Assembly: GCA_902799385.1 (NCBI GenBank)
Contig: CADCAK010000020.1
Span: forward strand, 33,771-97,770
Origin: an uncultured bacterium
GTDB taxonomy: Bacteria; Verrucomicrobiota; Kiritimatiellia; RFP12; UBA1067
DNA: 64,000 nucleotides
Reading direction: 5' to 3'
Made by a program: the position numbers and the translations under genes. Shown here piece by piece: positions 7,939-24,020 of this stretch; within the stretch, counting starts at the first letter, position 1; every line of letters begins with the position of its first letter. Under the pieces are notes generated by a model. It had not been told where the DNA came from. It searched no databases and saw only the letters and a list, made by a program, of their open reading frames with translations.

Positions 7939-7977
7939 CTAAAAACCTTCCCGCGACAATCCGCGCAAATATCTTGT

Positions 7978-8175
7978 TTAATGTTGCCATTGTGGAAGTG
8001 TTGCCAATTCCAATGTTGCCAATTTCCAACTGGTCCGCCGTAGCCTTGGCGTAGGCGAATTGGTAATCGGTATTGGTAATGGCAACACTTTTTCACATCT
8101 TGACCTCGGTAGCCTCGGCGAAGGAGGTTGGCAACATTCTCCCCCGGCCCGCGCAAATGTCATTCGAGTATTCAT
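7978..8175 (-). other. repeat-derived ORF opened by the MNTRMTFARAGG module and running through CCAAT/TTGCCAAT-rich filler
   Basis: ATGAATACTCGAATGACATTTGCGCGGGCC at 8175. Downstream it reads ...WKLATLELATLPQWQH*. Composed entirely of modules seen elsewhere in the window. Confidence 0.3.
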
Positions 8176-8210
8176 GTGTTCGTTTCCTTTCGATTGCATT
8201 GTTGGAGATA

Positions 8211-8573
8211 TCAAGTTTTCCCCAATGAAAACATGACAAAGCCACCTAAACAGGCCAGCACATGAAACAGCAAAAGCAGCGCAAGGCAAATGTTGACGGT
8301 CTTTTTACTGCTCGACAGCAAGCACATTCCAACAAGCGTAAAATATGCAATATACAATGAAGCACACAGCCAGAAAAACACTAAACCCTCGCCTATCACT
8401 CGACCCAACAATAATACATCGACCGCATAAACCAAAAACACAGGTGCCAAGGCGAACATCGCCAGTGCAATCTTGAAAAAATGGCTGGCATCCACAAACA
8501 AAGCGCTTATCAGCGACATTGCGCATCCCATCACCAGCACACACGCCAACCGCCCTTTTATGCCGAACTTCAT
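8211..8573 (-). CDS. small integral membrane protein (about 4 TM)
   Basis: Hydrophobic throughout. ATGA overlap with the upstream gene. Confidence 0.6.
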   Translation of the reverse strand: MKFGIKGRLACVLVMGCAMSLISALFVDASHFFKIALAMFALAPVFLVYAVDVLLLGRVIGEGLVFFWLCASLYIAYFTLVGMCLLSSSKKTVNICLALLLLFHVLACLGGFVMFSLGKT

Positions 8574-9682
8574 ACTTCCGCTCCTTTCTTAATCCTGTCA
8601 ATCATGTTAATCCTGTCTAAAAGGCCATCTCCTTTCACGATCAGTTTGAAATAGTCTTCGCATTCCTGTCCCTTGCAATTGAAGAGAAAGACAAGCCCCC
8701 ATCGTATGTGCTCGGAGTACATTGCTTTCGGAACCGTGAACGCGAAGCTGCCCGCATGAACCAATGCAGGGGAATCCGCTTCGTACACCGTCTCCTGGAT
8801 ATCCTTCTCCTGCGTGCCCGCCTCGCGTATCGCGCCGTCGGACTGGACGAGCAAGACCTTTAGTGCGTTCGGCGCGGAAGCGCCAGCGAATTCGTAACAG
8901 ACGCACATCTCCGCGCCAGTCCTCCACTTGCCGCCCGTGAACGTGACCTTGTAGTGCGGCTGAGCTGCCTCGCGCCTGACCATACGGACTACAAACGCCG
9001 CATAGGTACCTACCACCGCCACAGGCGAGACAATGAGAAAGCATTTGAACGCAAAAGGATCAGTGAAAAGTTGAAAGCCCTTAAGCCCGATTATGAGCCC
9101 AAGCGCTGCTATGCATCCCAGGAAGCCGCCGACCAATTTTGGAAGATCAAGATCGCGCGACCTTCTCAGGCAAACGGTCTGCTTGCCCCGCACGGTTGTC
9201 TTGCCCTTGAGAAATGGCCTTGCCAGCTCATGGACACCGATTAAAAAGACCAGCATTCCGATTAAGAAGAAAATCACAAACAAGATTATCGGAAGGACAT
9301 TGTGCATCACCAGCGCAAATACCCTGAAAAACATTGGAAGATTCGTATCGCCAGCTCTGGCATTCTCGGCCACCGTGCTGCAGACGCCGAGAACTCCCAA
9401 CAGGGCAAACATCGCACCCAATATGACAAACATGAACTTGCCCATCAACGAACCCGGTTTTGGCTTTTCGTCCCCTCTGGAGAACAGCATCGCGATACCT
9501 GATGCGACTACGACAACGCCGAGCGCCCAAAATCCGGAAAAGAACGTGTACATCATCCACCGTCCGTATGGATCAGGAACATCACTCTTGCCCACCCCCG
9601 AGCTACATGAAAAGAGCCACGTGATGACGGCAAGAATGCTGCACCAAACGATGCCGAACAAAAGAAGCGAAGCCTTCTTCAT
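8570..9682 (-). CDS. membrane protein (about 6 TM plus a soluble C-terminal domain) of unknown function
   Basis: MKKASLLLFGIVWCSILAV. The C-terminal 16 aa (LLDRINMIDRIKKGAEV) are encoded by the (RACAGGATT)3 repeat at 8589-8622. Confidence 0.65.
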   Translation of the reverse strand: MKKASLLLFGIVWCSILAVITWLFSCSSGVGKSDVPDPYGRWMMYTFFSGFWALGVVVVASGIAMLFSRGDEKPKPGSLMGKFMFVILGAMFALLGVLGVCSTVAENARAGDTNLPMFFRVFALVMHNVLPIILFVIFFLIGMLVFLIGVHELARPFLKGKTTVRGKQTVCLRRSRDLDLPKLVGGFLGCIAALGLIIGLKGFQLFTDPFAFKCFLIVSPVAVVGTYAAFVVRMVRREAAQPHYKVTFTGGKWRTGAEMCVCYEFAGASAPNALKVLLVQSDGAIREAGTQEKDIQETVYEADSPALVHAGSFAFTVPKAMYSEHIRWGLVFLFNCKGQECEDYFKLIVKGDGLLDRINMIDRIKKGAEV

Positions 9683-9741
9683 TCTCCCGCTCCTTTCGAC
9701 TTGTCAGCGGCGGCCCGCGCAAACATCATCCGCGTATTCAT
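9679..9741 (-). other. upstream ORF, MNTRMMFARAAADKSKGAGE (module A)
   Basis: SD GGAGGAATCGAA precedes the ATG at 9741. Its TGA overlaps the ATG of gene 8570..9682 (ATGA at 9679-9682). Confidence 0.45.
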
Positions 9742-9786
9742 TTCGATTCCTCCGTTGTGAATGTTTCTATGTGCGCAACCACATGT

Positions 9787-10236
9787 CTATTTGCTAACAT
9801 AGATAACCTCCTCGCAATTTGTCACAACACCTTTTGAGTCAAACCAGAATGTCGGAACATACTGTCGTCCCAGCCAATCGGTACGGCACACATCATAGAA
9901 TTGCCAGCAATATGCCTCCATCGCGCGTTCGTCTTTCGCAAGTATTGCGTCAAGGTTCTCAACTCCTGGCCAATCCTCATTGACTCCCACCACTTGCAAA
10001 CCCCAACGAGGGTACACGCTACGCGGGTCGCGTCCATCACCATTGCAATAAAGGTCTATCTTAAACGAAATTGGACGCCAACTATCTACCCAACGCTCGT
10101 ACATGACGACCAACACCTCTTTGCGATTCTTGCCCACCAGCGAGTCCATTTCTTTTTGCCGCGCACAAGCACACCCCGCCAAGCATAGCATCGCCGCTCC
10201 CGCGACGGCCCGCGCAAACATCATCAGCGTATTCAT
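9787..10236 (-). CDS. lipoprotein of unknown function
   Basis: ORF trimmed to MNTLMMFARAVAGAAMLCLAGC (lipobox). The ATG overlaps the TGA of the upstream gene. Confidence 0.65.
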   Translation of the reverse strand: MNTLMMFARAVAGAAMLCLAGCACARQKEMDSLVGKNRKEVLVVMYERWVDSWRPISFKIDLYCNGDGRDPRSVYPRWGLQVVGVNEDWPGVENLDAILAKDERAMEAYCWQFYDVCRTDWLGRQYVPTFWFDSKGVVTNCEEVIYVSK

Positions 10237-12086
10237 TTCGCTTCCTCCGCTTTGGTTGGGTTTTGATCTGGCAAGACGGCGATTAGGATGTCGAGCTTCC
10301 AATAGCTCTTCTCGCGGAAGCGGTAGATATGCCCGGGCTTGAGCGCGACAGAACGATCTTCATTTTCCCACTCTCTCTTCACTGGCTCCGGCTTCGGAAG
10401 GTCACCAGACGCCTCCAATCGTTTGAACTCTTCAGGCGTCAACTCACCAAAATCATCCCATGTTGTTGGCGCCCATCCGAAATCCGCACCAACACATCCA
10501 TCGCCGCTACCATAAGGGTCGAGTCTCAATGTGCATGTGTTGCCCAAACTGTCGCGCGCCGTCTGCAACAGCAATTCCTTTTTGCCAGGCACGACCGACT
10601 TCTCCTGCCACGCATCGCCTTTCGCGGCAAACGGCCTGAGGGCAAAGCGGCGCGGCACTTCGCGGACAAGCACAACATCGCCCAAGTCAAGCGAAGGGTC
10701 ACGCGAAAGGTCTATCTTTCGCAACAGGCTGGGGCAGCCGATAGCCGACAACTTGAAGCGGTATGCCATAGGCGAGCATCTCTGCACCTTGACCGCAACG
10801 CCATTTGTAACCGCAAACGAACAAGCGGCGGCTTGCGGCCTTTCGCGTCCGCCTTTCCTGGTTCCCCAATCTTCGCCGACGGGAAAGCGGTTGTCCACCT
10901 CCAGCATCGCCGTCGCGGTGTCGATGCCATCCGGGAGCCGTGGCGTGAAAGCGAGCGTCGCCGCCTTGTCGGGCGCAAGCCGTTGCATCCGCAGCGTCCC
11001 GAAGTTGAACGGATGACTGGCGCTCATTTGTGGCGGCATTTGCGGCATCCGTACGGCAAGCGGCGCATAGCCGTGTTTCTCAAACACGATGTAGTCGCGC
11101 GTCCAGTGTACGTTTGCAATGAACGAGCCATCCTCGTAAAGCGAGACCCAAGTTGCAACATCCGCGACGTCCGAACCTTCCACTTCAAGGCGGCCGAAGA
11201 CAAGCGTTCCATAGGAATGCGTCTGCGGCCACAAACGCTTCGCCTCTTTGGCAATGTGCGGCGGCGCGTCCGACAACCCGTCGAAGCAAAGTGGTACGGC
11301 TACTTCATTTGCCTTCAAGAACGCCTCGCGCAACTCGCGTTCCGTCAACTCCCTGCGCTCCGCAACGCCACACGAGACGATTCGCGCCACGGCTGCAGGC
11401 GAAAGCACCGCCCATGCGTCATCGTTCAGCGTATGGCCAAAGAAGTTGCGCACGCTCTGTTCATCCGCATTCAGCGCAAACGCCTCCAGTTCCGCCGCAA
11501 CAGCCGGATGATCCTTCGCAAGCGACACCGACGACCTTTGCGCCACCGTCCCGGTAAAAGAGACCACGCTCGCACAGTTTGCAACCTCCATCCCGCCACG
11601 CAGAATCACGCGGCGCGGCACCTCTGCATCGCCAGTCGCCAAGAAGTAGCCCCACAGGAAATCAACTATTTTCGGCGTATAGTCCGCCAAGTCCCGTGGC
11701 ACCATGTCGTCAATGGACTTTCCCTCCAAAGCCGCGCCGATCCCAACCGCGACCTTCTCGCCGCCGCGCATCTTCGCCGCTTCCCATTTCTCCCGCCACG
11801 CATCCCCCGACGACTTCGCCGCCCCGAAGTAAAACCCAATCATCGGCAGAATGCCGCCCGGCTTGATCTTATTCATCTTCTTGACGGACGGCAAGATGGC
11901 TATTGCTTCCTCCACATCAGGGGCTTTGTAGTAGCCGTTGAAGAGAACATCCATCTTCTCCATTTCGGCCTTCGTCGGCTCTGACTTAAATAGTCCAAGA
12001 AACGCAAGGGCTTCTCCTGGCGTCAAAGCCATCGCTACCATCGCCGCCCCTGCGACGGCCCGCACGAACATCTTCCGCGTATTCAT
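10233..12086 (-). CDS. secreted 617-aa protein of unknown function
   Basis: MNTRKMFVRAVAGAAMVAMALTPGEALA is a signal peptide. No motif I recognise. Confidence 0.7.
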   Translation of the reverse strand: MNTRKMFVRAVAGAAMVAMALTPGEALAFLGLFKSEPTKAEMEKMDVLFNGYYKAPDVEEAIAILPSVKKMNKIKPGGILPMIGFYFGAAKSSGDAWREKWEAAKMRGGEKVAVGIGAALEGKSIDDMVPRDLADYTPKIVDFLWGYFLATGDAEVPRRVILRGGMEVANCASVVSFTGTVAQRSSVSLAKDHPAVAAELEAFALNADEQSVRNFFGHTLNDDAWAVLSPAAVARIVSCGVAERRELTERELREAFLKANEVAVPLCFDGLSDAPPHIAKEAKRLWPQTHSYGTLVFGRLEVEGSDVADVATWVSLYEDGSFIANVHWTRDYIVFEKHGYAPLAVRMPQMPPQMSASHPFNFGTLRMQRLAPDKAATLAFTPRLPDGIDTATAMLEVDNRFPVGEDWGTRKGGRERPQAAACSFAVTNGVAVKVQRCSPMAYRFKLSAIGCPSLLRKIDLSRDPSLDLGDVVLVREVPRRFALRPFAAKGDAWQEKSVVPGKKELLLQTARDSLGNTCTLRLDPYGSGDGCVGADFGWAPTTWDDFGELTPEEFKRLEASGDLPKPEPVKREWENEDRSVALKPGHIYRFREKSYWKLDILIAVLPDQNPTKAEEAK

Positions 12087-12105
12087 GTTGTTTCCTTTCT
12101 AAAGA

Positions 12106-12957
12106 CTACTCGCCGAACAGCTTCATTAGCTCCAATGCCTGTTTCGCAGACTCAAGCCCCTGATCCGCAGCTTTGCGAATCCACTTGCGCCCCTCTTTGG
12201 AACTCTTCTTCACGCCTTTGCCTTTGCCATAGCACAAGCCCAGATTGTATTGCGCAACTGCATCCCCCTGCTCAGCAGCTTTGCGCAACCATTTGGCCGC
12301 CTCGTCATAGTCCGTCGCAACGACCTCGCCTTGGGCATAGCAGAGGCCAAGATATCTCTGGGCGAGCGAATCCCCCTGTTCTGCCCCTTTTCGCCACCAC
12401 TTAACAGCCTCAGACATGTCCTTAGCAACACCTTCGCCCTCAGCGTAGCAACAGCCAAGGTAGCCCTGCGCCAGTGCATCACCCTGTTCCGCCGATTTCA
12501 GAAACCATTTCGCCGCCTCGGACATGTCCTTTGCAACCCCTTTGCCTTTGGCGTACAAGTTGCCAAGATCGCATTGCGCATACATATGTCCCTGCTCCGC
12601 CGCCTTGCGGAACCACATCGCCGCCAGTGCATAGTCCTTCTCTACACCGTCACCATCACGATAGCACACGCCCAGCGCACCTTGAGCCCGCGGCAACCCC
12701 TGCTCTGCAGCTTTGCGCAACCACTTGACCGCCTCAACCATATCTTTCGCAACACCGTTGCCTTCATGGTAGCGACAACCAAGGTTGTGCTGTGCAACAG
12801 CATCACCATTGTTCGCAGCTTCCAGAAGTTCTGCAATGGGCAACTCCCCTCCATCCTTCGAAGCGTTCGTAGTGCTGCATCCGCACACTACCATCAGCAA
12901 CAGGAGTCCTGCAACTCCAGCTGCGACAACAGCAGCAAGTCCTCTTCGCATATTCAT
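12106..12957 (-). CDS. Sel1-repeat (SLR/TPR-like) lipoprotein
   Basis: Lipobox LLLLMVVCGC. About six copies of a 36-aa repeat GDAxAQxxLGxCYxxGxGVxKDxxEAxKWxRKAAEQG. Confidence 0.9.
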   Translation of the reverse strand: MNMRRGLAAVVAAGVAGLLLLMVVCGCSTTNASKDGGELPIAELLEAANNGDAVAQHNLGCRYHEGNGVAKDMVEAVKWLRKAAEQGLPRAQGALGVCYRDGDGVEKDYALAAMWFRKAAEQGHMYAQCDLGNLYAKGKGVAKDMSEAAKWFLKSAEQGDALAQGYLGCCYAEGEGVAKDMSEAVKWWRKGAEQGDSLAQRYLGLCYAQGEVVATDYDEAAKWLRKAAEQGDAVAQYNLGLCYGKGKGVKKSSKEGRKWIRKAADQGLESAKQALELMKLFGE

Positions 12958-13043
12958 GAGTTTGTTCCTTTCATTTTCTATTTTGTTTTTATGTTTGTTT
13001 TTCTCGCGCAGAGGGTTTGAGATATGTCAACCTGATGCATTAA

Positions 13044-14198
13044 TCAGTGCCTCATTTCCAGACTTCGGCATGATTCGATTACTCGCTCCAAGATTGGCTC
13101 GCTTTTATGCGATTCAAGTCCAACATCCCTGGCAAGGCGACGAAGATCGGCAACGCCTGGATTCGCGCCCTCGCCGGCGACGGAAAGCGTCTGCCAGCCG
13201 TTGGGACCCTCCGCATACGTGAAATCATAGAACGGCGCAAGTGACCAACGACCCTTCTCGTCCATCAGGAAAGAGAAGTTCTTCAGGTGGTCGTCCCTGT
13301 TGTGCGCGATAACATTCAGGCAGGCGCGGCGAAATAATTCCTCTTTAGCAGACATGTCATGCGTCAAAGCATCGGTCAGACGGGATAGGAGCGCGTATTC
13401 GTCGCCTGGAATTCTGAAGTCGGCATGGAGAAGTCCAGCGGCGCTAGCCATGTGGACGCGTCCACCGCCAGGCGTGCGGTCGAATCGCCGCGTCATGAAG
13501 AACCTACCCACCTTCGTAGCGACTAGGCAGCTTGGCGCCATGTTCGCCCCCGCCGCAAGCGCGACCTCGTAATAACGGTATTCCATTTCGCCAGCCTTAT
13601 CACCCTCGCGCCGCGTGTTGAATTTCACGATCCAATGCTCGAAGCCTGGCGGCAGGACTGGACGCTCCGCGCACACTTCTCCCATCTTGGGATTGTACCC
13701 GACATACGCCTTTGGCCGCGCGCCACCGGAACTTCCTCCGGCCTTGCGAAGTCGCGGAAGCGCACTCTCCGCCTCCCCCGCATCGAACGCCATCGCCTCT
13801 TCCGCAAGCGCGGCGAGGTCGAACGCTTCATTCTCCACATCAGCCGCTTCGTCTGCCGGTTCGTACACAAGCGCACCTTTCCCGGAGCGACCAACGCACA
13901 TAAGCCGCTCGGTAATCGTCGGCAGGCGCCCCTCACGTTTCATGAACATCCTGTCAACGATTCTCCGCCCCCATCCATCCGGCAGCGAATCATCGAAAAG
14001 TCCGAACGTTTCCATGTTTCCCGAGCGGTCGTATATTTTCAACCCACCGCCAAGAGGCAGACGAAACGGTGCAGGGTTTAGCTCCAACGAAAGGAACTCC
14101 CCCGCGAACTCAAACGCCGTATCGCGCCCCACTTCGGAAAAGGTCCCGACCCTCATTTCGCGGCCGCTGCCAAAGTCCAATTTGACAGTCAATTTCAT
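13044..14198 (-). CDS. hipA: type II toxin HipA-family serine/threonine kinase
   Basis: Motifs DSLPDGWGRR, GGARPKA, NRDDHLKNFSFLM and LAPFYDF. Confidence 0.9.
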   Translation of the reverse strand: MKLTVKLDFGSGREMRVGTFSEVGRDTAFEFAGEFLSLELNPAPFRLPLGGGLKIYDRSGNMETFGLFDDSLPDGWGRRIVDRMFMKREGRLPTITERLMCVGRSGKGALVYEPADEAADVENEAFDLAALAEEAMAFDAGEAESALPRLRKAGGSSGGARPKAYVGYNPKMGEVCAERPVLPPGFEHWIVKFNTRREGDKAGEMEYRYYEVALAAGANMAPSCLVATKVGRFFMTRRFDRTPGGGRVHMASAAGLLHADFRIPGDEYALLSRLTDALTHDMSAKEELFRRACLNVIAHNRDDHLKNFSFLMDEKGRWSLAPFYDFTYAEGPNGWQTLSVAGEGANPGVADLRRLARDVGLESHKSEPILERVIESCRSLEMRH

Positions 14199-14539: not shown

Positions 14540-14545
14540 GACAGT

Positions 14546-14554
14546 ATATTACCA
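14546..14554 (-). promoter_or_regulatory. extended -10 element TGGTAATAT; probable leaderless hipB transcript
   Basis: TAATAT, then 6 nt, then ATG 14539. Confidence 0.5.
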
Positions 14555-14570
14555 CAATATATTGCCGTTG

Positions 14571-16914: not shown

Positions 16915-16967
16915 GGGGTGCTCCTTTCGGTTATTGCCATACTATCCTCTTTCGCGTATCCATTTCG

Positions 16968-18323
16968 TCATTTCCTTTCCCGCTTGCGACCTTTTGAGCG
17001 CGGATCGTCATCTGGCGGAAGGAACGTCCCGATGAGCATTTCATTCTCAAGCGTTTCGCCGACAGGCGTGAATTCATGTCCGGTCACCTTCCCGCCTTCT
17101 GTATTGACATTGATCGAAACGCTGAGCGGATTGCCGTTCTCTCCTCCTCTGATGCGAATGCCGCCATCGACGGATGTTGCGCCAGACGGGATCTTCACCC
17201 ACAAATCTCCATACTTGTTCCAATGATCCTTGAACATGACTTCCACAGATTCGTCTGTGGCGTTGATACGCCATTCTTTGCGCCACGAGATATCCTTCTG
17301 CCCGGCATTGAACAGATGATAGCCTCCGTCTTCAAGCGCATAGAGCGAATATCCTTCGTCACCGGTGCAACTATCGGAGCCAAGCGCGATTCGCGCCCCC
17401 GATGCAAACACCAGACGGTAGTGCCGAGAACCTTTCAAACGCCTGCATTCAAGTGAAAACGGAACTTCGCCGCCGGCCAGTTTTATGGGATTCCATTGGG
17501 GCTCGATGATGTCCGCAAATGGATCGCCCTCGCCAGGCTCAAACCTTCCGCTCGGATAGAGAAGCCCAAGGTAGCTTCGCCCTTTCAGAGAATCTCCAAC
17601 TGGTGCCCCGCCATCCGCCCGCTTTTCGCCGTCTGCCGTCTTGGCCGTAATCGAGTCGTTTGCCCTGCTATCGACCTTGAGCGCACCTTCAGGGATATTC
17701 ACCCATGTTTCATCGCACATCATCTCCACCATTTCATTCGTCACATTGACGCGGTAGTCGCTGCGTATGAAGTCGTGTTCCAGTCCGTCCACGAGATAGT
17801 ATTCCCCGGTCGGCAGGCGATAGACCGCGAACGGTCCCGCACCGCCCGTGTCAATCCAAACGCCAATGCGCTTTCCTGACTTGAATACGATGGTCTTGTC
17901 GTACTCGGCGAGGAACGGATGCGCCGGACGATACTCGACCGCAAACTCAAGCGCGCTGGCATCGTTCGTCACGCTTGCGCTCTTAACCTCCGCATATCCA
18001 CTTGACGTCGCGTAGGCAACAACATCATGCGCTACAAATGCAAAGACCAACCCAAAGCCGAACAGGAACAACCCTGCTATGCCGAGGAAGAATTGCCCAA
18101 GCGCACGCAACCACTCACGCTCGTTGAGTGAAATGAACAATGCGATCAGCCATGCTATCGCCGCCAATACCTGCACGACGAACATCATATTGACCATCGC
18201 AGTCCCGAATCTGCCGAGCGGCGGCGATATTGCATACGCCGCGAACAGCAACAGCGCAGTGCAGCACCACGCGACAAACGGCCCGTACGCCGTCTCGAAT
18301 ACGAATTTCACAATCTTCTTCAT
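16968..18323 (-). CDS. membrane protein (N-terminal TM segments plus a tandemly duplicated soluble domain), unknown function
   Basis: ORF trimmed to MKKIVKFVF with SD AAAGGAAAG. Internal repeat: YRLPTGEYYLVDG...RVNVTNEMVEMM versus YALEDGGYHLFNA...RINATDESVEVM. Confidence 0.65.
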   Translation of the reverse strand: MKKIVKFVFETAYGPFVAWCCTALLLFAAYAISPPLGRFGTAMVNMMFVVQVLAAIAWLIALFISLNEREWLRALGQFFLGIAGLFLFGFGLVFAFVAHDVVAYATSSGYAEVKSASVTNDASALEFAVEYRPAHPFLAEYDKTIVFKSGKRIGVWIDTGGAGPFAVYRLPTGEYYLVDGLEHDFIRSDYRVNVTNEMVEMMCDETWVNIPEGALKVDSRANDSITAKTADGEKRADGGAPVGDSLKGRSYLGLLYPSGRFEPGEGDPFADIIEPQWNPIKLAGGEVPFSLECRRLKGSRHYRLVFASGARIALGSDSCTGDEGYSLYALEDGGYHLFNAGQKDISWRKEWRINATDESVEVMFKDHWNKYGDLWVKIPSGATSVDGGIRIRGGENGNPLSVSINVNTEGGKVTGHEFTPVGETLENEMLIGTFLPPDDDPRSKGRKRERK

Positions 18324-18336
18324 CGCCGCTTTCCTT

Positions 18337-18504
18337 TCATTGACAATTGGAATTGGTCTTGGAAACATTTTCACATTTGCAACATTTCCCGCTCCCCTTA
18401 CACAGAGCGTCCACCTTCGCCAAGGCTTCCCCCTTCGCCAAGGCTACGGAGGACAAGACGGAGGATAAAACGGAGGACAAGTTGATTCGTGCAAATGGTT
18501 TCAT
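18337..18504 (-). other. upstream ORF MKPFARINLSSVLSSV...CCKCENVSKTNSNCQ (module C/D)
   Basis: Its ATG overlaps the TGA of Sel1 gene 18501..19238 (ATGA). It stops 13 nt before ATG 18323. Confidence 0.4.
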
Positions 18505-19238
18505 GGGCGTTTTCCTTTCGTTGCCGTTGCCGACAGTTTGCCCAAGATTCGTTCCGCCACAGCGTGACCATGCTCCGCCGCCTTGCGAAGCCAGGATAGC
18601 CCCAGAGATTTTGACTTCCGCACGCCTTCTCCGTCCCGGTAGCATTCCCACAAATTGAACATGGCCTTTTCATCGCCGCGCCTTGCCGCCTTTCGGAACC
18701 AAGCGACAGCCTCCTTCGCATTCCCCTCGCATCCAATCCCATTGATCAGACACGCACCAAGATTGCACTGCGCCTTGACAACGCCAAGTTCCGCCGCGCG
18801 CTTGTACCAATAAACAGCTTTCTCATCGGACTGCCTTACCCCCTCGCCACGATCATAGCAAACACCAAGATTGTAGAACGCGAGTGCATCATCCATTCTC
18901 GCTCCTTTCCTATATAGCTTGACCGCTTCGAGGCAATCCCGCACTACGCCTTTCCCGTAATGGTAGCAATGCCCAAGGTTAACCCATGCCTCGAGTATTC
19001 CGTGGTCAGCCGCCTTGCGATACCATTCAACAGCCTTGCGGAAACTACGCCGGACAAGATTCCCGTCTTCGTAGACAAAGCCCATTTCGTACTCGGCATC
19101 GGGCAAGCCGTTTCGCGCCGCCTTGCGGAGCCATTTTATACACTCCACATTTTCACCACGATCTCTGCAGTCGAAATATAGTTGATACTGCGCATCAGCA
19201 TCATCATGGCCTGCAATGTTTCTACCTTTAATCTCCAT
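18501..19238 (-). CDS. Sel1-repeat protein (no signal peptide seen)
   Basis: Repeated AxxxxGxxYxxGxGVxxxxxxAxxWxRKAA units. Confidence 0.85.
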   Translation of the reverse strand: MEIKGRNIAGHDDADAQYQLYFDCRDRGENVECIKWLRKAARNGLPDAEYEMGFVYEDGNLVRRSFRKAVEWYRKAADHGILEAWVNLGHCYHYGKGVVRDCLEAVKLYRKGARMDDALAFYNLGVCYDRGEGVRQSDEKAVYWYKRAAELGVVKAQCNLGACLINGIGCEGNAKEAVAWFRKAARRGDEKAMFNLWECYRDGEGVRKSKSLGLSWLRKAAEHGHAVAERILGKLSATATKGKRP

Positions 19239-19245
19239 CCTTCAT

Positions 19246-19326
19246 CTACTCCTTTCGCTTGCCGCCCGCAGGGTTTAGTTCCGCCAGTGCCATCCCACAC
19301 CACACCGCCATCATCATTTTCTTCAT
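19246..19326 (-). other. short ORF MKKMMMAVWCGMALAELNPAGGKRKE; looks like a truncated signal peptide
   Basis: Uses the same AAGGAGAACGGCGATGAAGAA start context as gene 16968..18323. Confidence 0.3.
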
Positions 19327-19339
19327 CGCCGTTCTCCTT

Positions 19340-19426
19340 TCATTGGCAATTGGAATTGGTCTTGGCAACATTTTCACATTGGCAATATTCTCCTCCAACC
19401 CGCGCAAATATCATCCGCGTATTCAT
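19340..19426 (-). other. upstream ORF MNTRMIFARVGGEYCQCENVAKTNSNCQ (module A fused to module D)
   Basis: Its ATG overlaps the TGA of gene 19423..20529, in the context GGAGGAATCGAAATGA. Confidence 0.4.
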
Positions 19427-20529
19427 TTCGATTCCTCCGTTGACGGTTCTTCTTGTCCTTCTCGCCAAAGGCGCGAGGTCCTTATTTGCGGAAACAAGCC
19501 ATCCGAAATGCTGACAACCGCTCGCAATTCACATTCGTCTGGAAGATCAAACCGCTTGCGAACCTCCTCGGGACGACGCCAAACATAGACACTGAGCCTT
19601 ATGCCGTCTGGACGCACCGCATCCAGCCGGAACCGCCAAGCCCCCGGCTCACTGTCGGCCGAAACGCGGTCAACCGCGCCGTCGCAGTCGAAGCCGTCGG
19701 CCCGAGCCAGCTTCAGAACCTCGTCTTCAGCAGCCTTGCGCTCTTCGTTCGAGAGCGACATTGGATAGTTGCGACCGAACGCGATACCGGAGATCGTCTT
19801 CGTGCGCAGCGAATATTCGGCGTAGCTGTGCGTGAAGAGTGGATGGTCAAGCGGCACGCAATCCTCTCTCCAGTAGCGAACCTTAACTCCACCCACTTCA
19901 ATGCAACCGTCGAGAAGCGTCGCCCCCGGCGGCGCGACCTTTGGAATCTTCACTCCAAGAAGTTTGTCGGGGAACTCAGTAGCCTGCGGCACCTGCGGAG
20001 GAGGCTCGCCGTTTTCCTTCACCCACGCCGCCCACTCGTCGTCATTCATCAGCCGCACCGACAAGTCAAGCACCTTTTGGTTGTCATCGCATTCCTTAAA
20101 GTGAAACTCGCCCGCAAGCCCTGAGTTAGCCGCCCAGATCATCCTCATAGGGTCGTGAGTCCAACGACTACTACTTAACGTGCCCTTGGCTCGAACTGCA
20201 GGCAGTTCTAATTGACAATCCCATATCAATTCCTCCCGCGACTTGCTGTCCCATTCCTGCGAAAGGTCGCGCGAACGCAGGACGATACATTCCGCCCTGC
20301 CCGAAGCACCGCGCACGACTCTCGCCCACTTCCAGTCCTTGTGCTTGACATTCACCCACTGCCCCGTCGAATTCAGCGACGCCACCTCAATTCCAAACAA
20401 CTGTTCCGGCAATTCTGCCGCGCGTCCCCACGCCACATTCGCCACCACCGCCTCGCCATGCCTGGCCATGATGGCAATCGCTATGGCCGCAGCAATCGCA
20501 AGCGCTGCAAATACGATTTTCTTATTCAT
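19423..20529 (-). CDS. secreted 368-aa protein of unknown function
   Basis: MNKKIVFAALAIAAAIAIAIMA is a signal/anchor sequence. The last codons (TEESK) are encoded by the junction module. Confidence 0.65.
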   Translation of the reverse strand: MNKKIVFAALAIAAAIAIAIMARHGEAVVANVAWGRAAELPEQLFGIEVASLNSTGQWVNVKHKDWKWARVVRGASGRAECIVLRSRDLSQEWDSKSREELIWDCQLELPAVRAKGTLSSSRWTHDPMRMIWAANSGLAGEFHFKECDDNQKVLDLSVRLMNDDEWAAWVKENGEPPPQVPQATEFPDKLLGVKIPKVAPPGATLLDGCIEVGGVKVRYWREDCVPLDHPLFTHSYAEYSLRTKTISGIAFGRNYPMSLSNEERKAAEDEVLKLARADGFDCDGAVDRVSADSEPGAWRFRLDAVRPDGIRLSVYVWRRPEEVRKRFDLPDECELRAVVSISDGLFPQIRTSRLWREGQEEPSTEESK

Positions 20530-20621
20530 GCTCCCGTTCCTTTCTTAATCCTGTCAATCCTGTTAATCCTGTCTAAAAACCTTCCCGCGCCGCCCCGCGC
20601 AAACATCATCCGCGTATTCAT
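20526..20621 (-). other. upstream ORF MNTRMMFARGGAGRFLDRINRIDRIKKGTGA (module A plus 9-mer repeat)
   Basis: Its TGA overlaps ATG 20529 (ATGA). It starts 15 nt after the ATPase stop. Confidence 0.45.
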
Positions 20622-20635
20622 GTGGTTCCAACCGA

Positions 20636-21973
20636 TCAAATCTTATATATCATATGCTCCGGCAGTGCGACGGGCAGTATGAATTGTGCCATGTAGATTG
20701 GCGCATAGGTAATCCGGCCTTCTTTCTTGATGTTGCCGTTGCAAAGCACAATCGCCTCCGGGATGTCGTATGCGCTTGACGCCATGACATTTGCCAGAGC
20801 CGCGTGCTTGACGTAGTCCTTGCCGCTTTTCACTTCCAGAGGCAGGACCTTTCCTGCAACTTCAAGGACAAAATCAAGTTCGCCCTGCTTCTTGGAGTTG
20901 AAATAGTTCGGCTCCAGTCCGTGCGCCGTAAGTTCCTGCGCAACCGCATTCTCATAGACGGAGCCAAAGTTCACCGACTTTTCGCCGTTGAGGATTTCTA
21001 GCTGTATGCCGTCCATGTATTGCGCGGCGAGGAGCCCCACGTCGTTGGAAAACAACTTGAAAAGGCTGGGCTTGCGGGCCAGTTTGAGCGGGGAAACCGG
21101 TTCTTCGACGCAGTAGGACGGAATCGCTACGCCAGCTTCCTTCAGCCACAGGAACTCGTCCGACAGATTCTCGAAGCGCGTGCCGACCTGTATGCTGCTC
21201 GCATAGAAACGCTTGTTGCGCTTGTTCAATTCGCCAGGCATGCGGTCAAACACCGCGCGTATTCGCAAAGCATTCTGCTCATCGTATTGCGCAATATCGC
21301 GCCGATACATAGCGACTATCTGACGTTGAACGCGCGTAACCGCCGCGATGTCCGAAGTGTCAACGTAGGTCTGGACGGCGGCCGGCATGCCACCTACCAC
21401 AAGATAAAGCGAGAAAAGTTTCATCAGCCGCTCATGATAAAAGGAATCAAGGGCAGTGCGCGCTTCCCATGCATTGCGGGCTTCGGCAAGGAGCGTCTCG
21501 CTTTCGCCATTGGCTGACAGGAATTCCTCGAAATCAAGCGGATACATCTTTACCTCGTCCATATAACCGACTGGAACTGAGCGGATGTTCTTTAGTTCAA
21601 CCCCCAGCAGCGAACCACTCAAAATGTAATGGCAAGAACCTTCCTCTACGAGAAACTTGATAAAAGTTACAGCATCGGGGCATGCCTGTATCTCATCGAG
21701 GAACACAAGCGTATCACCTCGCTTGAGTTCTGAGCGCGAAAACGCGGATATTTTCACCAACGCCTCCTTAGCGCTGGCGGAATTCTCGAAAATGCCCTTA
21801 GCCCCCTTGTCCTCAAGGAAATTGATTTCTATGAATCGTGAATAATTCCTGCGGGCAAACTCGCGAATGATAAACGTCTTGCCAACCTGACGCGCACCGT
21901 CAACCAGCAAGGCATACTTTCCTGCGTCTTTGCGGAATCGCTCTAGTCTTGTCGCAATTTTTCGCTTTAACAT
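20636..21973 (-). CDS. AAA+ ATPase/DUF4143 (COG1373 type), intact
   Basis: GARQVGKT, LVFLDEIQ, GGMPAAV, ELDFVLE...PLEVKSG. Confidence 0.85.
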   Translation of the reverse strand: MLKRKIATRLERFRKDAGKYALLVDGARQVGKTFIIREFARRNYSRFIEINFLEDKGAKGIFENSASAKEALVKISAFSRSELKRGDTLVFLDEIQACPDAVTFIKFLVEEGSCHYILSGSLLGVELKNIRSVPVGYMDEVKMYPLDFEEFLSANGESETLLAEARNAWEARTALDSFYHERLMKLFSLYLVVGGMPAAVQTYVDTSDIAAVTRVQRQIVAMYRRDIAQYDEQNALRIRAVFDRMPGELNKRNKRFYASSIQVGTRFENLSDEFLWLKEAGVAIPSYCVEEPVSPLKLARKPSLFKLFSNDVGLLAAQYMDGIQLEILNGEKSVNFGSVYENAVAQELTAHGLEPNYFNSKKQGELDFVLEVAGKVLPLEVKSGKDYVKHAALANVMASSAYDIPEAIVLCNGNIKKEGRITYAPIYMAQFILPVALPEHMIYKI

Positions 21974-21999
21974 GCTATTTTCCCTTTGTTACGCGACAC

Positions 22000-22008
22000 A
22001 TTATATCA
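22000..22008 (-). promoter_or_regulatory. extended -10 element TGATATAAT
   Basis: Lies 27 nt upstream of ATG 21973. Confidence 0.55.
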
Positions 22009-22121
22009 CACTTTGGACATTTTTACAAGTGGCCACCGGCCGAATTCTACATTTTTCCAAGATGAAATCACAGCCAATCATACACTTTTCCAAAACCGCC
22101 TGCAATAATTTTTGGCGAAAG

Positions 22122-22250
22122 TCAATACGAACAACGCTGCTTATTTGGCTTTTCTACCCACGAACTACGACTCGTATATGGCTCTTTTACTACTAATTCC
22201 TTCCGCGCTATTCCCGCGACGGCCCGCGCAAACATCATCCGCGTATTCAT
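22122..22250 (-). other. orphan module-A ORF MNTRMMFARAVAGIARKELVV... (42 codons)
   Basis: Exact module ATGAATACGCGGATGATGTTTGCGCGGGCCGTCGCGGG. No gene is attached. Confidence 0.3.
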
Positions 22251-22294
22251 CGTACTGCTCTTACCTTTGCCAAGATGTTGTTTTATGGCTGTGC

Positions 22295-23422
22295 CTACAT
22301 GAGGAAGCCATCGTAGCTCTCTCGCCTTATCACGCTGTATGTAGCATTTGGATATGCGGCTGCGAACGGCTGCGGCATCTTTGCCTTTTCATGCGGATTC
22401 CACTTGAACTCAAACGCTTTTATCTGTCCGTCCAACTCCTCTATGTAGTCAATCTCGCTCTGTGTCGTTGTTCGCCAGAAGTAGCTGCGGGCGTATGACT
22501 GCGCGTAGGCCAATCGTTTCAGCCTCTCCGACACCAGCCAGTTCTCCCACAACGCACCGACATCGGTACGCAGCGTAAGCGGCGCAAAATTGCCCAACAC
22601 GACATTGCGGATTCCGTTGTCCCAGAAGTATATCTTTCTCGCCCGCTTCAATTCATTGCGTGCATTGCGCGCAAACGACCTAAGCGAAAACACGACAAAA
22701 GTCTTTTCCAGCAAATCAATGTAGCTTTCGACCGTCGCCTTGTTGAGCCCTGTCATCTGGCCAAGTTCATTGGCCGAAACTTCACTGCCAAGTTGCAACG
22801 CAAGACATTGCACAAGCCGCGACAACACATCGGGTTTCCGTATGCCGTCAAACGACAACACATCTTTATACAACGCTCCGCTTGCTATCGACTCCAATAT
22901 CCGTCGGCCATCGTTCGGCGCCGTCACCACCTCGGGATAGCTGCCATATACGAGCCGTTCTTGCAAAAGGCGTTGCTCCGCCAGTTCCGCGCCGGATTGC
23001 GCTGCCAACTCCCCATGCGAAAGCGGATACAGGCGGTACTCGAAAATCCGCCCGGCAGCCGACTCAAACACGCCATTTGCCAGTTCCAGCGCACTTGATC
23101 CAGTGGCAACAATCTGCGCTCGCGCCCCCAGCGCATCCGCAAGCATCTTGAACACCATCCCGACATCAGGTATGCGCTGTGCTTCGTCAATCAGCACCAG
23201 TTGTGCGTTGCCAACAATATTGAGCAGTTGCGTTGTGTTTGGATTGGAAAGTCGCTCGCGCTCATCGGCATTGTCGCAATTGATGCGCACGACTCGCTCC
23301 ACATTTTCTGCCAGTTGATTCAGGAGCGTGGTCTTGCCTACTTGTCTTGCACCAAGCACCAAGACAACCTTCCCTTTCCCGAAATCACTTCGGATTTTGG
23401 CCTCTATATTGCGCTTTATCAT
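22295..23422 (-). CDS. AAA+ ATPase/DUF4143 (COG1373 type), shorter subfamily, intact
   Basis: GARQVGKT, LVLIDEAQ, EIDYIEE...FEFKW. Start trimmed to MIKRNIEAK, downstream of the -10 element. Confidence 0.8.
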   Translation of the reverse strand: MIKRNIEAKIRSDFGKGKVVLVLGARQVGKTTLLNQLAENVERVVRINCDNADERERLSNPNTTQLLNIVGNAQLVLIDEAQRIPDVGMVFKMLADALGARAQIVATGSSALELANGVFESAAGRIFEYRLYPLSHGELAAQSGAELAEQRLLQERLVYGSYPEVVTAPNDGRRILESIASGALYKDVLSFDGIRKPDVLSRLVQCLALQLGSEVSANELGQMTGLNKATVESYIDLLEKTFVVFSLRSFARNARNELKRARKIYFWDNGIRNVVLGNFAPLTLRTDVGALWENWLVSERLKRLAYAQSYARSYFWRTTTQSEIDYIEELDGQIKAFEFKWNPHEKAKMPQPFAAAYPNATYSVIRRESYDGFLM

Positions 23423-23447
23423 TCCCTTCTCTCCGTTTGACGCATAT

Positions 23448-23456
23448 ATGATACCA
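23448..23456 (-). promoter_or_regulatory. extended -10 element TGGTATCAT
   Basis: Lies 26 nt upstream of ATG 23422. Confidence 0.45.
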
Positions 23457-23553
23457 TATTTCGTCACAGCGCGTCAATGCTAATAGCCAAATTTGATATT
23501 ACTTTGGCTACCATGCCGCCTAAAACAATACTACATTTAGACATTCTATACCA

Positions 23554-23928
23554 TTAGCGTATTAATTTCGTGGACTCTTCAATCTCACAAACTATGGGGG
23601 CATTATCCTCGTCAACCAACACCAGGGCAAATGGCCTATCAATGCCAGGCGATAGATAGTTCACCGCTTCCGAATATGCCTTGCCGTTTACAACAGCATA
23701 AAGGCCACCTTCAGCGTAATCGCGAAGTTTCACGATTTCGACGCAACTAGGCTTGATTGTCGTTTCGCAAACAACCTTATCTCGCACAGATAGTTTACAG
23801 CACATCTCCTTTCCCGATACATTGACAAGCATTACTTGCAGAGCTGAGTTATACCAACAATAGACTAATCCGCAAAGGCTTAAACCAACCACAACCGCAA
23901 GCGCGGCAAATATGATTATCTTCTTCAT
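23554..23928 (-). CDS. small secreted or membrane-anchored protein
   Basis: MKKIIIFAALAVVVGLSLCGLVYC. ATGA overlap with the upstream ORF. Confidence 0.55.
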   Translation of the reverse strand: MKKIIIFAALAVVVGLSLCGLVYCWYNSALQVMLVNVSGKEMCCKLSVRDKVVCETTIKPSCVEIVKLRDYAEGGLYAVVNGKAYSEAVNYLSPGIDRPFALVLVDEDNAPIVCEIEESTKLIR

Positions 23929-24020
23929 GCTTCCGTTCCTTTCTTAATCCTGTCAATCCTGTTAATCCTGTCTAAAAACCTTCCCGCGACGGCCCGCACA
24001 AACATCATCCGCGTATTCAT
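23925..24020 (-). other. upstream ORF MNTRMMFVRAVAGRFLDRINRIDRIKKGTEA
   Basis: Module A plus (RACAGGATT)3. Its TGA overlaps ATG 23928. Confidence 0.45.

Follow-up and report, generated by a model that had tools for sequence, protein, structure and literature searches.

A short start-codon module recurs at gene junctions of one-directional arrays in gut Kiritimatiellia as a putative signal-peptide start or coupling leader

Mosaic repeats such as the E. coli BIME/REP, Neisseria NIME/dRS3 and Correia elements are untranslated and defined by palindromes. In mycoplasmas, the variable lipoproteins of the vsa, vpma and vlp systems have a common, near-identical DNA 5′ region that includes the signal peptide, and expression is switched inside a single genome by a neighbouring recombinase, inverted sites and a sole expression site. 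The module described here, module A, and its partners are like the mosaic repeats in that a few short intergenic modules are combined and tied to variable genes, with modules B, C and C2 as long imperfect hairpins, and like the mycoplasma families in that common 5′ DNA stands on unrelated or variable mature lipoproteins, with recombination there. Module A differs from the former, however, in being non-palindromic and defined by reading phase, and from the latter in occurring as direct repeats, each with its own SD and ATG and half of them closed as mini-ORFs, with exchange taking place between genomes.

MIRUs, so far as the summary of Supply et al. (1997) in PMC12548453 goes, are short repeats between co-directional genes of one transcription unit; like the elements here, they lie between genes, couple a small ORF to a flanking gene by a 4-nt overlap and change length with the frame preserved. 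They belong to another phylum and have another sequence, whereas here the modules are separable and confined to variable islands, tandem arrays of whole units were not seen, and the first 12 codons double as the true signal-peptide start on 21 protein families. In integrons, ORF-11 of attI1 raises cassette translation by coupling, its amino-acid sequence being irrelevant, and ORF-11/17/18 are, as here, small SD-bearing ORFs in the junction before a cassette, with a stop at or from the cassette (PMC8876359). That ORF is single and at attI only, whereas here a leader occupies most junctions along the array and can also fuse in frame to yield an exported protein. Synthetic bicistronic designs (BCD), which aim at expression independent of a gene's 5′ coding sequence, likewise have a short fore-cistron with SD1, an SD2 in its 3′ end and a stop–start overlap (PMC8601185), but are engineered, and the natural multi-copy element is likened to them by its anatomy. 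Chromosomal integron arrays, CALINs and Bacteroidales rAID-1 elements are also long one-directional arrays of small, mostly uncharacterised, horizontally exchanged genes, with repetitive intergenic sequence and skewed GC (bioRxiv 10.1101/471110). Integrons have IntI and hairpin attC sites and rAID-1 a conserved XerD-family recombinase (bioRxiv 10.1101/471110), none of which was found in the arrays here, where the repeat is a translated start module and not a structured recombination site. An earlier note on this DNA held that no ordinary feature type explains the module, which is too strong: MIRUs, attI1 ORF-11 and bicistronic designs have this coupling anatomy.

In the window, the whole 64-kb stretch of DNA analysed, module A is a near-identical stretch of ~37 nt made up of a ribosome site, the ATG and 12 opening codons of an export signal, and eight clear and four partial copies were found, all on the minus strand at 7.9–24.9 kb. 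A 38-mer gave five matches at ≤3 mismatches versus none expected (100 shuffles). A module profile bore out the recurrence listed in the earlier note, with seven strong copies (ATG 24020, 22250, 20621, 19426, 12086, 10236 and 9741; E 7e-18 to 1.5e-14) and a diverged one at ATG 8175 (E 5.5e-8), besides partial copies near 14629, 14733 and 7975 (E 1.4e-5 to 4.6e-4) and no significant match in the rest of the 64-kb window. Both other diverged copies that had been listed exist, but that at 14642 is a variant start, MKTKLFARAVAG, and that near 7975 has its ATG at 7990; a remnant at 14722 keeps the 5′ half and one at 24847–24867 the core alone. The claim of one conserved SD did not hold, as ACGGAGGAATCGAA lies ahead of the copies at 9741 and 19426 only (with a close variant at 10236), and GAAAGGAAnCnAAC-type sites take the SD position at other copies. 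Neither dyad symmetry nor a GTTRRRY core was found in the module. The features are these:

6400..26250, minus strand: variable island holding all module copies, described from GC, Pfam and PADLOC content and flanking genes.
24847..24900, minus strand: REP-like element with a tail, CCTGTTTGCGCGGGGCGTTGCG, that matches the module A core, at the third array junction, between genes 24910–25512 and 24422–24802.
23925..24034, minus strand: 31-codon leader ORF with SD, A (23984–24020), B (23943–23977) and embedded SD2; the TGA of the leader (23925–24020) overlaps the ATG of gene 23554–23928.
22122..22264, minus strand: 42-codon dead-end ORF opened by A (22214–22250); the next gene, 20636–21973, has its own promoter. 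In a related locus (L047), the same upstream ATPase gene and module A are followed instead by the short linker and a zinc-ribbon gene.
20526..20635, minus strand: 31-codon leader ORF with A (20585–20621), B (20544–20578) and SD2; the TGA of the leader (20526–20621) overlaps the ATG of gene 19423–20529.
19340..19440, minus strand: 28-codon leader, A (first 29 nt) joined to C-left; its ATG (19426) overlaps the TGA of gene 19423–20529, and its stop lies within the CAATGAAAGGAG SD region, 13 nt ahead of the next ATG.
18337..18504, minus strand: sister leader of 55 codons, F start (MKPFARI) with module D (12- and 18-nt tandem units) and C-left; its ATG overlaps the stop of a Sel1 gene, and it ends within the SD region, 13 nt ahead of ATG 18323.
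16792..16914, minus strand: second F + D leader, 40 codons, upstream of the 23S-IVS gene 16408–16767.
14571..14722, minus strand: two remnants, the A 5′ half (ATG 14722, ATGA-overlapping the stop of ATPase gene 14719–16104) and an A2 variant, MKTKLFARAVAGAVMSVV.. (ATG 14642), a truncated signal peptide running into the hipB promoter.
10233..12100, minus strand: 617-aa protein with A (12050–12086) as its signal-peptide-like N-terminus and no match in Pfam or NCBIfam; its last codons and stop come from the SD/ATGA of the module at 10236.
9787..10250, minus strand: 149-aa LAGC lipoprotein, MNTLMMFARAVAGAAMLCLAGC, with A (10200–10236) as N-terminus; its gene has variant 5′ ends in L005, L029 and L087, and the block 9676–10236 is 97.9% identical to L005, with different flanking genes on each side.
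9679..9755, minus strand: 20-codon leader ORF, MNTRMMFARAAADKSKGAGE, with SD, A (9705–9741) and short linker with SD2; the TGA of the leader (9679–9741) overlaps the ATG of gene 8570–9682.
8570..8622, minus strand: module B + SD2 as in-frame C-terminus (..RINMIDRIKKGAEV, then stop) of a 370-aa protein, the TGA of which overlaps the ATG of gene 8211–8573.
7978..8193, minus strand: diverged A (ATG 8175) joined after position 31 to a full C hairpin (arms about 7977–8030 and 8072–8138).
7728..7990, minus strand: variant start ATGGCAACATTAAACAAGATATTTGCGCGGATTGTCGCGGG (ATG 7990), then a long B-type hairpin (arms 7927–7945 and 7728–7746).

Earlier readings thus stand for A as the real N-terminus at 10236 and 12086, as read from the sequence, for the 20–31-codon ORFs at 9741, 20621 and 24020 with a TGA overlapping the next gene's ATG, and for the overlap of the ATGs at 10236 and 19426 with the TGA of the gene before each, these genes ending in ..EEAK and ..EESK. 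The island consists of one-direction cassettes, mostly for uncharacterised small exported or membrane proteins, together with four PDC-S01-type ATPase genes, hipBA, two Sel1 proteins and a 23S-IVS protein (Pfam, PADLOC); its GC is 49–58%, versus 60–66% over most of the sequence beyond 26 kb, and housekeeping genes flank it on either side. The region of the module arrays also holds defence-type genes, and a RAYT-like Y1 gene is present in the window.

Matches to the 28-mer of the module came from 15 species-level gut Kiritimatiellia/Lentisphaerota MAGs and from 66 metagenome contigs; viral contigs had none. In a comparative set of 96 related loci with 183 distinct module contexts, copies were co-directional in all 54 loci holding at least two, modules occupied most gene junctions, and 102 of the 183 copies were identical over 28 nt, a figure inflated because the loci were retrieved with a near-exact pattern. 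Long ORFs are opened by 39 copies and comprise 21 unrelated mature families, with a lipobox in 26 of the 39. Short ORFs number 131, mainly of 20 (n = 42) or 31 codons (n = 24). Tabulating phase across these loci showed that copies do relate to start and stop codons: downstream, 89 of the 131 short ORFs end in (A/G)TGA overlapping the next ATG/GTG, the genes behind them comprising at least 39 unrelated families (27 of 39 with a hydrophobic N-terminus and 12 without), and upstream, an ORF of ≥60 codons ends in A's ATGA at 65 of 161 copies, versus 8–9 in either other frame, although this frame conservation may be due in part to copying of whole units and not to selection. An SD-like motif was present at 147 of 161 copies, the next gene's SD sits inside the leader at working distance, and a real ORF lies behind 72 of the 131 leaders as against 242 of 1453 other same-strand short ORFs (odds ratio 6.1, p = 6e-21).

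The module is conserved at the DNA level without codon-level constraint. No peptide-level constraint was found in the leaders (synonymous:nonsynonymous 57:129 versus 25:74 expected at random), and none in the true A-type signal peptides either. No stem–loop hiding the downstream SD was found (z −0.6 to +2.3), and the A–B leader folds worse than 200 of 200 shuffles (z = +2.3), in keeping with an initiation region free of structure. Strong sigma-70-like promoters precede the ATPase and hipB genes only, the other cassettes having none.

We consider it reasonably probable that A is a junction module of general use in a recombining cassette array, acting as signal-peptide start or as translational-coupling leader cistron. 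It would be part of a reusable set of SD blocks, starts (A, A2 and F), spacers (B, C and D) and a short linker that contains a second SD. In gut Kiritimatiellia these would stand between promoterless cassettes, in arrays that run in one direction, are hypervariable and are exchanged horizontally. A would provide the ribosome site, the ATG and the positively charged first 10–12 codons of a Sec or lipoprotein signal peptide, its use being set, in this scheme, by the sequence placed behind it. Ahead of a cassette whose first part is a hydrophobic core plus a cleavage site, A would be the true start of an exported protein; with a cassette that has its own start, a fixed-phase linker would end A's reading frame at 20 or 31 codons, hold the next gene's SD and finish as ATGA on that gene's start. 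Judging from this anatomy, the leader cistron would pass a terminating ribosome to the next gene by termination–reinitiation and, since the TGA in A's ATGA is often the stop of an upstream gene, runs of the array would form chains of coupled ORFs. Downstream genes have a strong SD of their own, and the leader may therefore add little. The modules would be kept near-identical and reassorted by recombination through the modules themselves, most likely by homology-driven exchange inside a common gene pool.

Comparison of cassette order between contigs placed the breaks in homology inside or at the edge of modules. Homology blocks run from the SD or ATG to where the next A finishes (3′), indel junctions are located within modules, and breakpoints also fall in B repeats, the SD block and the ATG. 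By pairwise linkage, positions −20 to −1 co-vary with the upstream flank and A positions ≥30 with the downstream flank, A positions 1–29 being generic, with variants linked to neither. Module B is exactly the 33-nt in-frame stretch that is present or absent in the leader between one pair of flanking genes; both the 20- and the 31-codon leader stand before members of four gene families, one and the same gene is seen with and without A, and a single mature lipoprotein is found behind the A, A2 or F signal peptide. Because the spacer modules inside leader ORFs repeat every 9, 12 or 18 nt, changes in their copy number preserve the frame. This mosaic pattern across the 96 loci supports the earlier proposal of a junction that swaps 5′ ends, but the mycoplasma-type likeness drawn with it fails on the direct repeats, own starts and lack of a linked recombinase. 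The pattern might also arise if A and its linker were a small MIRU-type mobile repeat (59 or 92 nt, ATGA to ATGA) inserting at start codons, its internal ORF and SD merely rendering insertion harmless and cassette shuffling being secondary. ATGA does bound the unit at each end, the gene found with and without the unit also occurs with the 59- or 92-nt version, the 20 nt ahead of the ATG go with the upstream flank, and MIRUs are reported, in the summary consulted, to insert at start codons with a −4 overlap (PMC12548453). We nevertheless regard such a repeat as unlikely, since the pieces are found apart (B + SD2 without A; linker + SD2, or B, as C-terminus of real genes), A is fused to real signal peptides of the 21 families, B precedes A in L014, whole units were not found in tandem and the copies are restricted to islands and not scattered among operons genome-wide.

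It is also unlikely, in our estimation, that the module is or holds the recombination site of an integron-like or Xer/HUH-type cassette system whose recombinase gene lies at another place in the genome and whose site carries the start codon and the beginning of the signal peptide, as attI1 carries ORF-11. No recombinase was found in the island, among the Pfam-annotated neighbours at 8 further places or among 338 ORFs of related loci scanned for motifs, and the missing dyad symmetry and GTTRRRY core, the breakpoints in B repeats, the SD block and the ATG, and the variants at A positions 1–29 that follow neither flank all speak against it. On the other side stand the one-directional, promoterless, uncharacterised cassettes with toxin–antitoxin genes, the DNA-level conservation free of codon constraint, the star-like pattern of module variants, and a variant A copy that moves with the upstream cassette in L017 and L084. 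A is joined to the following sequence in only a few fixed ways (after position 31 or 37), and this could indicate a site-specific process; the RAYT-like gene and the 11-nt core TGTTTGCGCGG that the REP-like element and module A have in common would fit one too.

Dead-end or decayed copies exist (no gene lies behind 22250, and 14642 and 14722 are remnants), signal peptides are truncated to several lengths (e.g. 14642, L019 and L061), and six B-type leaders ahead of genes are frameshifted in a T-run. These, and the lack of peptide-level constraint in leaders and true signal peptides alike, would suit short ORFs that are functionless decayed 5′ ends of a recently expanded lipoprotein family, with the bodies displaced by other genes. 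We find this quite unlikely, as two exact leader forms recur ahead of the at least 39 unrelated families in many species, the stop–start overlap is mostly kept and leaders hold the next gene's SD at working distance; the 28-nt identity of most copies is unexpected from random decay, though inflated by near-exact retrieval. Decay of a single family, which the earlier note had raised, is at odds with 21 mature and at least 39 downstream families.

The suggestion of a coupling or regulatory leader is strongly supported as to coupling anatomy (overlaps, internal SD and upstream ATGA ends) but not as to the analogy with SecM and MifM. A regulatory nascent peptide of SecM/MifM/VemP or attenuation type, sensing export capacity and controlling envelope genes, is very improbable, even though the leader has a signal-peptide-like start and most downstream families a hydrophobic N-terminus. 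Leaders of 20 or 31 codons stop ahead of any hydrophobic core, and because of this the peptide cannot engage SRP, Sec or YidC. The ribosomal exit tunnel takes ~30–40 residues, and a 20-mer does not clear it. Furthermore, neither peptide constraint nor an SD-hiding stem–loop was found, the downstream families are unrelated, 12 of them without a hydrophobic N-terminus, and no Pfam match to secretion-machinery families (e.g. Sec, YidC) was obtained among the proteins scanned, 13 from window cassettes and 10 representing locus families. Apparent shuffling by misassembly across a short repeat is likewise scarcely credible: the comparative data are metagenome assemblies throughout, in which repeats may give rise to chimeras, short contigs that stop at the module are many, and repeats of 60–110 nt are near assembler k-mer sizes, but arrays from independent samples and studies recur at 99.9–100% identity over 7.3 kb, junction types recur in many assemblies, and 12 junctions lie within the single 64-kb window.

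The repeat that the earlier note had reported at a series of gene boundaries is present at those sites: a 38-mer of it has five matches in the window at up to three mismatches and none in window shuffles, and a profile built from seven copies (E 7e-18 to 1.5e-14) also retrieves one diverged and three partial copies, with no significant match in the other 46 kb. The phase relations of these copies to neighbouring start and stop codons had been described correctly. The conserved part, module A, consists of the start codon and first 12 codons of a signal peptide (~37 nt); the Shine-Dalgarno (SD) sequence ahead of it, which had been taken as a uniform part of the module, varies among copies. The copy placed at 14642 exists, as a variant start rather than a diverged copy, and two module remnants were added to the list.

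ATG at 24020, 22250, 20621, 19426, 12086, 10236 and 9741, minus strand: the seven profile copies
ATG at 8175, minus strand: diverged copy
near 14629, 14733 and 7975, minus strand: partial copies
14642, minus strand: variant start (MKTKLFARAVAG)
14722 and 24847-24867, minus strand: module remnants

All lie within an island (~6.4-26.25 kb) with a GC content of 49-58%, compared to 60-66% for most sequence beyond 26 kb, and with housekeeping genes on both flanks. The window has five paralogues of an AAA_14/DUF4143 ATPase matching PADLOC PDC-S01, a candidate defence family (E down to 1e-185):

6487-7566, 14719-16104, 20636-21973 and 22295-23467: ATPase paralogues inside the island
2444-3433: fifth ATPase paralogue, outside the island

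The island also contains hipBA, genes for two Sel1 proteins and one 23S-IVS protein, and some ten ORFs without family assignment. Strong sigma-70-type promoters were found only ahead of ATPase and hipB genes, each of the four island ATPases having one, and hence the module-led cassettes (genes between two junction modules) appear promoterless; transcription of the promoterless cassettes that follow may start at the four ATPase promoters. No promoter was found within the module, the TTGACA of the spacer module B having no -10 partner. At the edge of the island, 26250-26570 is a GC-rich non-coding stretch of ~320 nt between a phosphoribosyltransferase gene and the first island gene, with no Rfam match, and an extended -10 element (TGTGATATAAT) at ~26225 probably drives the first cassette genes.

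We then consider the module beyond this genome. A degenerate module 28-mer occurs in 21 stretches from 15 of 185,579 species-representative genomes searched, all 15 of them MAGs, labelled mostly Kiritimatiellae/-ia, Victivallales, Verrucomicrobia or Candidatus Spyradenecus, the remainder being two 'uncultured bacterium' entries and a short contig that was binned under Eggerthellaceae; ruminant guts are the source of the five RGIG MAGs. It also matches 66 metagenome contigs and no IMG/VR viral contig, and a phage origin was dropped on the latter result. With a looser search, the loci and the window together give 183 distinct module contexts, and in each of the 54 loci with at least two copies all copies are on one strand. 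Over 28 nt, 102 of the 183 copies are identical, an overestimate since the loci were fetched with a near-exact pattern; the comparative evidence as a whole comes from metagenome assemblies fetched with this biased probe. At several of eight further places the array borders on the DNA-glycosylase gene that it also borders in the window, and two pairs of independent assemblies (L090/L092 and L091/L094) are 99.9-100% identical over 7.3 kb, so the arrays are reproducible. The feature is genuine, strongly non-random and widespread within one gut lineage.

Its anatomy is that of a junction with fixed reading phase. An SD-like motif lies 4-16 nt 5' of the module ATG in 147 of 161 copies, and in 65 of the 161 the TGA of the module's ATGA is the stop of an upstream ORF of 60 or more codons, compared to 8-9 for the other two frames. 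As upstream genes stop there, the last codons of many of them (..EESK, ..EEAK, ..EASK) are encoded by the junction. On the 3' side, module A is continued by few types of sequence:

hydrophobic core and cleavage site: a real signal peptide
22-nt linker ACAAGTCGAAAGGAGCGGGAGC, then ATGA: a 20-codon ORF, in 42 contexts
module B (three copies of the 9-nt unit CAGGATTNA), the same SD and ATGA: a 31-codon ORF, in 24 contexts
module C (one half of a long hairpin, rich in TTGCCAAT): attached to A after its position 31
rarer tails

The short ORFs (leaders) form units of 59 and 92 nt, and 89 of 131 end in an (A/G)TGA stop that overlaps a downstream start. A real ORF opens at the overlap for 72 of the 131 leaders, compared to 242 of 1453 other same-strand short ORFs (odds ratio 6.1, p = 6e-21). 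Spacer modules have 9-, 12- and 18-nt periods, so that slippage within them preserves frame. The T-run at the joint of modules A and B differs between related loci, being T4, T5 or T6 (e.g. L018:6927, L045:1650, L067:468, L083:1152); T5 retains the 31-codon frame, and T4 or T6 ends the leader 27-46 nt ahead of the next start. This run may be prone to slippage that modulates coupling, that is, termination at the leader stop followed by reinitiation on the overlapping start.

Module A is thereby put to two uses. As a signal-peptide start it opens 39 long ORFs from 21 unrelated mature-protein families, 26 with a lipobox-like motif at the expected distance and others with AxA-type ends; with a positively charged n-region, hydrophobic core and lipobox, the predicted N-termini of the 26 fit a Sec/signal peptidase II signal peptide. 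As a coupled leader it stands ahead of at least 39 unrelated families, 27 with a hydrophobic N-terminus and 12 without. No Pfam, NCBIfam or PADLOC assignment was obtained for the window cassette proteins or ten locus family representatives, apart from two sub-threshold matches, to a zinc ribbon (one locus family) and to Tetraspanin (a 370-aa window protein). A second N-terminus, module E (MKKKIVFAALAVVVG), is likewise shared at the DNA level (window 23886-23928 and 20487-20529, and many loci) and opens several unrelated membrane or secreted cassette proteins, and hence 5'-end sharing extends beyond module A. In public protein collections, an exact look-up finds 31-codon leaders already entered as 'hypothetical protein', one exact sequence being on 14 contigs, and one 90% protein cluster contains both leaders and 277-423-aa proteins, suggesting fusions in annotation. 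In practice, gene callers record these leaders under that name and in some cases join them to an adjacent gene.

Comparison of contigs showed that the junctions are places where between-genome homology switches. Blocks shared between contigs at 85-99% identity run from the SD or ATG of one module to the 3' end of the next, past which the sequences are unrelated. In pairwise linkage analysis, the 20 nt 5' of the ATG follow the upstream flank, module positions 1-29 are generic, and positions 30 onward follow the downstream flank. Borders of indels between related contigs fall at module A, the 9-nt repeats of B or the SD block. The same gene pair has a 20-codon leader in one locus (L091) and a 31-codon leader in another (L095), by an exact 33-nt in-frame indel; both leader lengths occur in front of four gene families, the same gene is found with module A and without it, and in one locus (L014) the module order is altered to B-SD-A. 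One mature lipoprotein (..CCTVDRTGEYYVATK..) has, depending on the contig, start A or one of the alternative start modules A2 and F, the latter being MKPFARI plus a 12/18-nt tandem module, and this pattern of start exchange recurs in other families. As to cassette polymorphism within species, the pairs L090/L092 and L091/L094 are identical and show no fresh gain or loss of junctions, and gene conversion within loci was not detected, in that copies from the same locus were no more alike than copies from different loci, in a test biased by the way loci were retrieved.

As a generic junction, module A supplies an SD, an ATG and a charged signal-peptide start. A cassette either extends this frame as a signal peptide or ends it by a phase-fixed linker that embeds the cassette's own SD and a stop overlapping its start, and upstream genes commonly stop in the module's ATGA. 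A ribosome terminating at each ATGA would reinitiate on the adjacent start, and promoterless foreign cassettes would then be expressed whatever their own 5' sequence. The modules would persist because only cassettes with intact flanking identity blocks keep being exchanged; in E. coli, efficient homologous recombination requires an identity of about this length (28-37 nt) as a minimum. The best description of the feature is a modular junction between cassettes that is translated and has two roles.

Among known systems, the coupling anatomy matches that of mycobacterial MIRUs, in which insertion at start codons creates -4 overlaps (PMC12548453). As there, a repeat (here in units of 59 and 92 nt) lies between co-directional genes, its ORF start and stop overlapping the flanking genes; in contrast to MIRUs, the window has no whole-unit tandem (VNTR) copies, only the internal 9-nt units of B varying, and the hosts are PVC-group bacteria. 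The coupling layout is the same as in synthetic bicistronic designs (PMC8601185), and is matched too by ORF-11/17/18 at attI1 of class 1 integrons, which raise cassette translation irrespective of peptide sequence (PMC8876359). The array itself resembles chromosomal integrons, with promoterless, co-directional cassettes. It also resembles the Bacteroidales rAID-1 immunity arrays, whose intergenic sequences are repetitive and which have a XerD-like recombinase (bioRxiv 10.1101/471110). Unlike in integrons, however, no tyrosine recombinase gene of the IntI type was found beside the array, and no attC, an imperfect inverted repeat with RYYYAAC and GTTRRRY cores, was found at cassette 3' ends. Module A was rejected as an attC site, since it and the leaders lack attC-like dyad symmetry (fold z-scores -0.6 to +2.3) and it carries GTTTGCG where the attC core GTTRRRY is required. 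Nor was a recombinase found by Pfam in any island ORF or flanking gene, among Pfam-annotated neighbours at the eight further places, or in a catalytic-motif scan of 338 locus ORFs, and a literature search on Kiritimatiellae and integrons yielded nothing relevant. The shared start also recalls the vsa/vpma loci of mycoplasmas, where lipoproteins share a 5' end. Those loci have inverted sites, a single expression site, silent copies without 5' ends and an adjacent recombinase, whereas here the repeats are direct throughout, no recombinase was found and each copy has its own ATG, mostly with the SD-like motif. With no IntI or attC, no whole-unit tandems, neither inverted sites nor a linked recombinase, and none of the traits of an arrest peptide, the finding lacks what defines membership of each family compared.

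It is possible, though we think it rather unlikely, that the arrays are a new gene-cassette system, in which the junction would be at once recombination substrate, portable translation start and partial export signal, and captured genes would be expressed at once by in-frame export fusion or by coupling. Such a system would work without integron integrase and attC, its mover being homologous exchange via the 28-37-nt blocks or an unrecognised enzyme. One candidate enzyme is a RAYT-like HUH protein, of the Y1 (IS200-type) transposase kind, encoded at 36988-37809 on the minus strand (Pfam Y1_Tnp, 3.8e-8; 67 bits to NCBIfam NF047646, REP-associated tyrosine transposase, under the cut-off of 80). 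On either side of its gene lie perfect 21-nt inverted repeats (GCGGGGACAGACCCCACGAAA; 36930-36950 and 37991-38011), which are unlike the non-palindromic module A. A related REP-like family, GGGGACAGrCCCCnCGGAACCGTTGTAAAAGGCCTGTTTGCG.., has in its tail TGTTTGCGCGG in common with the module A core:

36620-36680 and 24847-24900 (minus strand), window: REP-like copies
L046:983 and 3302, L078:12903: REP-like copies in related loci

The copy in the array (24847-24900) matches the module core at ~20 of 22 nt; the similarity may be microhomology by chance, or it may connect the RAYT with the array.

If the reading of the module as a coupling and export junction is right, an uncultured gut lineage would have evolved a natural 'plug-and-play' adaptor for unrelated horizontally acquired genes, one short sequence giving translation, and export where apt, at any array position, as a natural counterpart to the synthetic bicistronic designs. 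It would then be the second independent case, after mycobacterial MIRUs and integron ORF-11, of coupling repeats protecting gene expression, and the 28-nt probe would be a handle on a little-known variable surface/membrane gene pool of rumen and gut Kiritimatiellia.

Readings in which the leader peptide or its RNA has a regulatory function fare worse. The earlier note had suggested an export-monitoring leader in the manner of SecM and MifM. Compared to arrest peptides of the SecM/MifM/VemP type, the leaders have no export-pulled segment and no conserved arrest motif, their C-terminal residues being variable (DKSKGAGA, DKTKGAIE, DKKKGAGE), no stable structure sequesters the downstream SD, and what lies downstream is 39 unrelated families rather than an export factor. 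Of the proteins scanned, 13 cassette products from the window and ten representatives of locus families, none matched a secretion-machinery family in Pfam. They stop after MNTRMMFARAVA(D/G).., ahead of any hydrophobic core, and the ribosomal exit tunnel is longer than they are; a SecM/MifM-type force sensor is hence ruled out. Single-nucleotide departures from the consensus split 57:129 (synonymous to nonsynonymous) in leaders and 22:37 in true signal peptides, compared to 25:74 for random change, and hence conservation does not lie in the peptide; no peptide-level selection on the module was detected. An RNA switch or attenuator was rejected because none of four leaders folded is more stable than shuffles, the A-B leader being worse than 200 of 200. 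'Terminator-like' matches inside A-B (20584-20603, 7950-7969) are stems of six to seven pairs with three to four G-C pairs, and their total count equals shuffle expectation. Rfam gave no match in the whole window at gathering thresholds and, at permissive thresholds in the island, only two spurious sub-threshold miRNA-precursor matches in the hairpin at 16.3 kb; no tRNA or tmRNA was found. A Tat signal was rejected, since the module reads T-R-M-M-F-A-R, not S/T-R-R-x-F-L-K, with RM, RK or RI in nearly all copies and RR in few, and a RiPP precursor was dropped for want of modifying enzymes nearby.

Three further features of the window deserve mention. Downstream of the ATPase gene at 2444-3433, copies of C-left (the left half of the module C hairpin) and of start F (ATGAAACCTTTTGCACGAATG) at 2045-2183 form a second patch of the junction system, on the far side of DNA-repair genes. 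Next to the RAYT-like gene, at 37899-40436, is an 845-aa ORF that matches nothing in Pfam or NCBIfam; the segment around it (38-40 kb) has 41% GC and may have been acquired separately, as a second such region. Finally, all hairpins found in an inverted-repeat scan lie at 7.7-8.1, 14.5 or 16.3 kb; the long imperfect ones (16292-16395, 7728-7945 and 7977-8138) are composed of short tandem words, ATATCCA with period 7, CAGGATTNA with period 9 and the TTGCCAAT type with period 16, and their left halves alone are unstructured leaders elsewhere.
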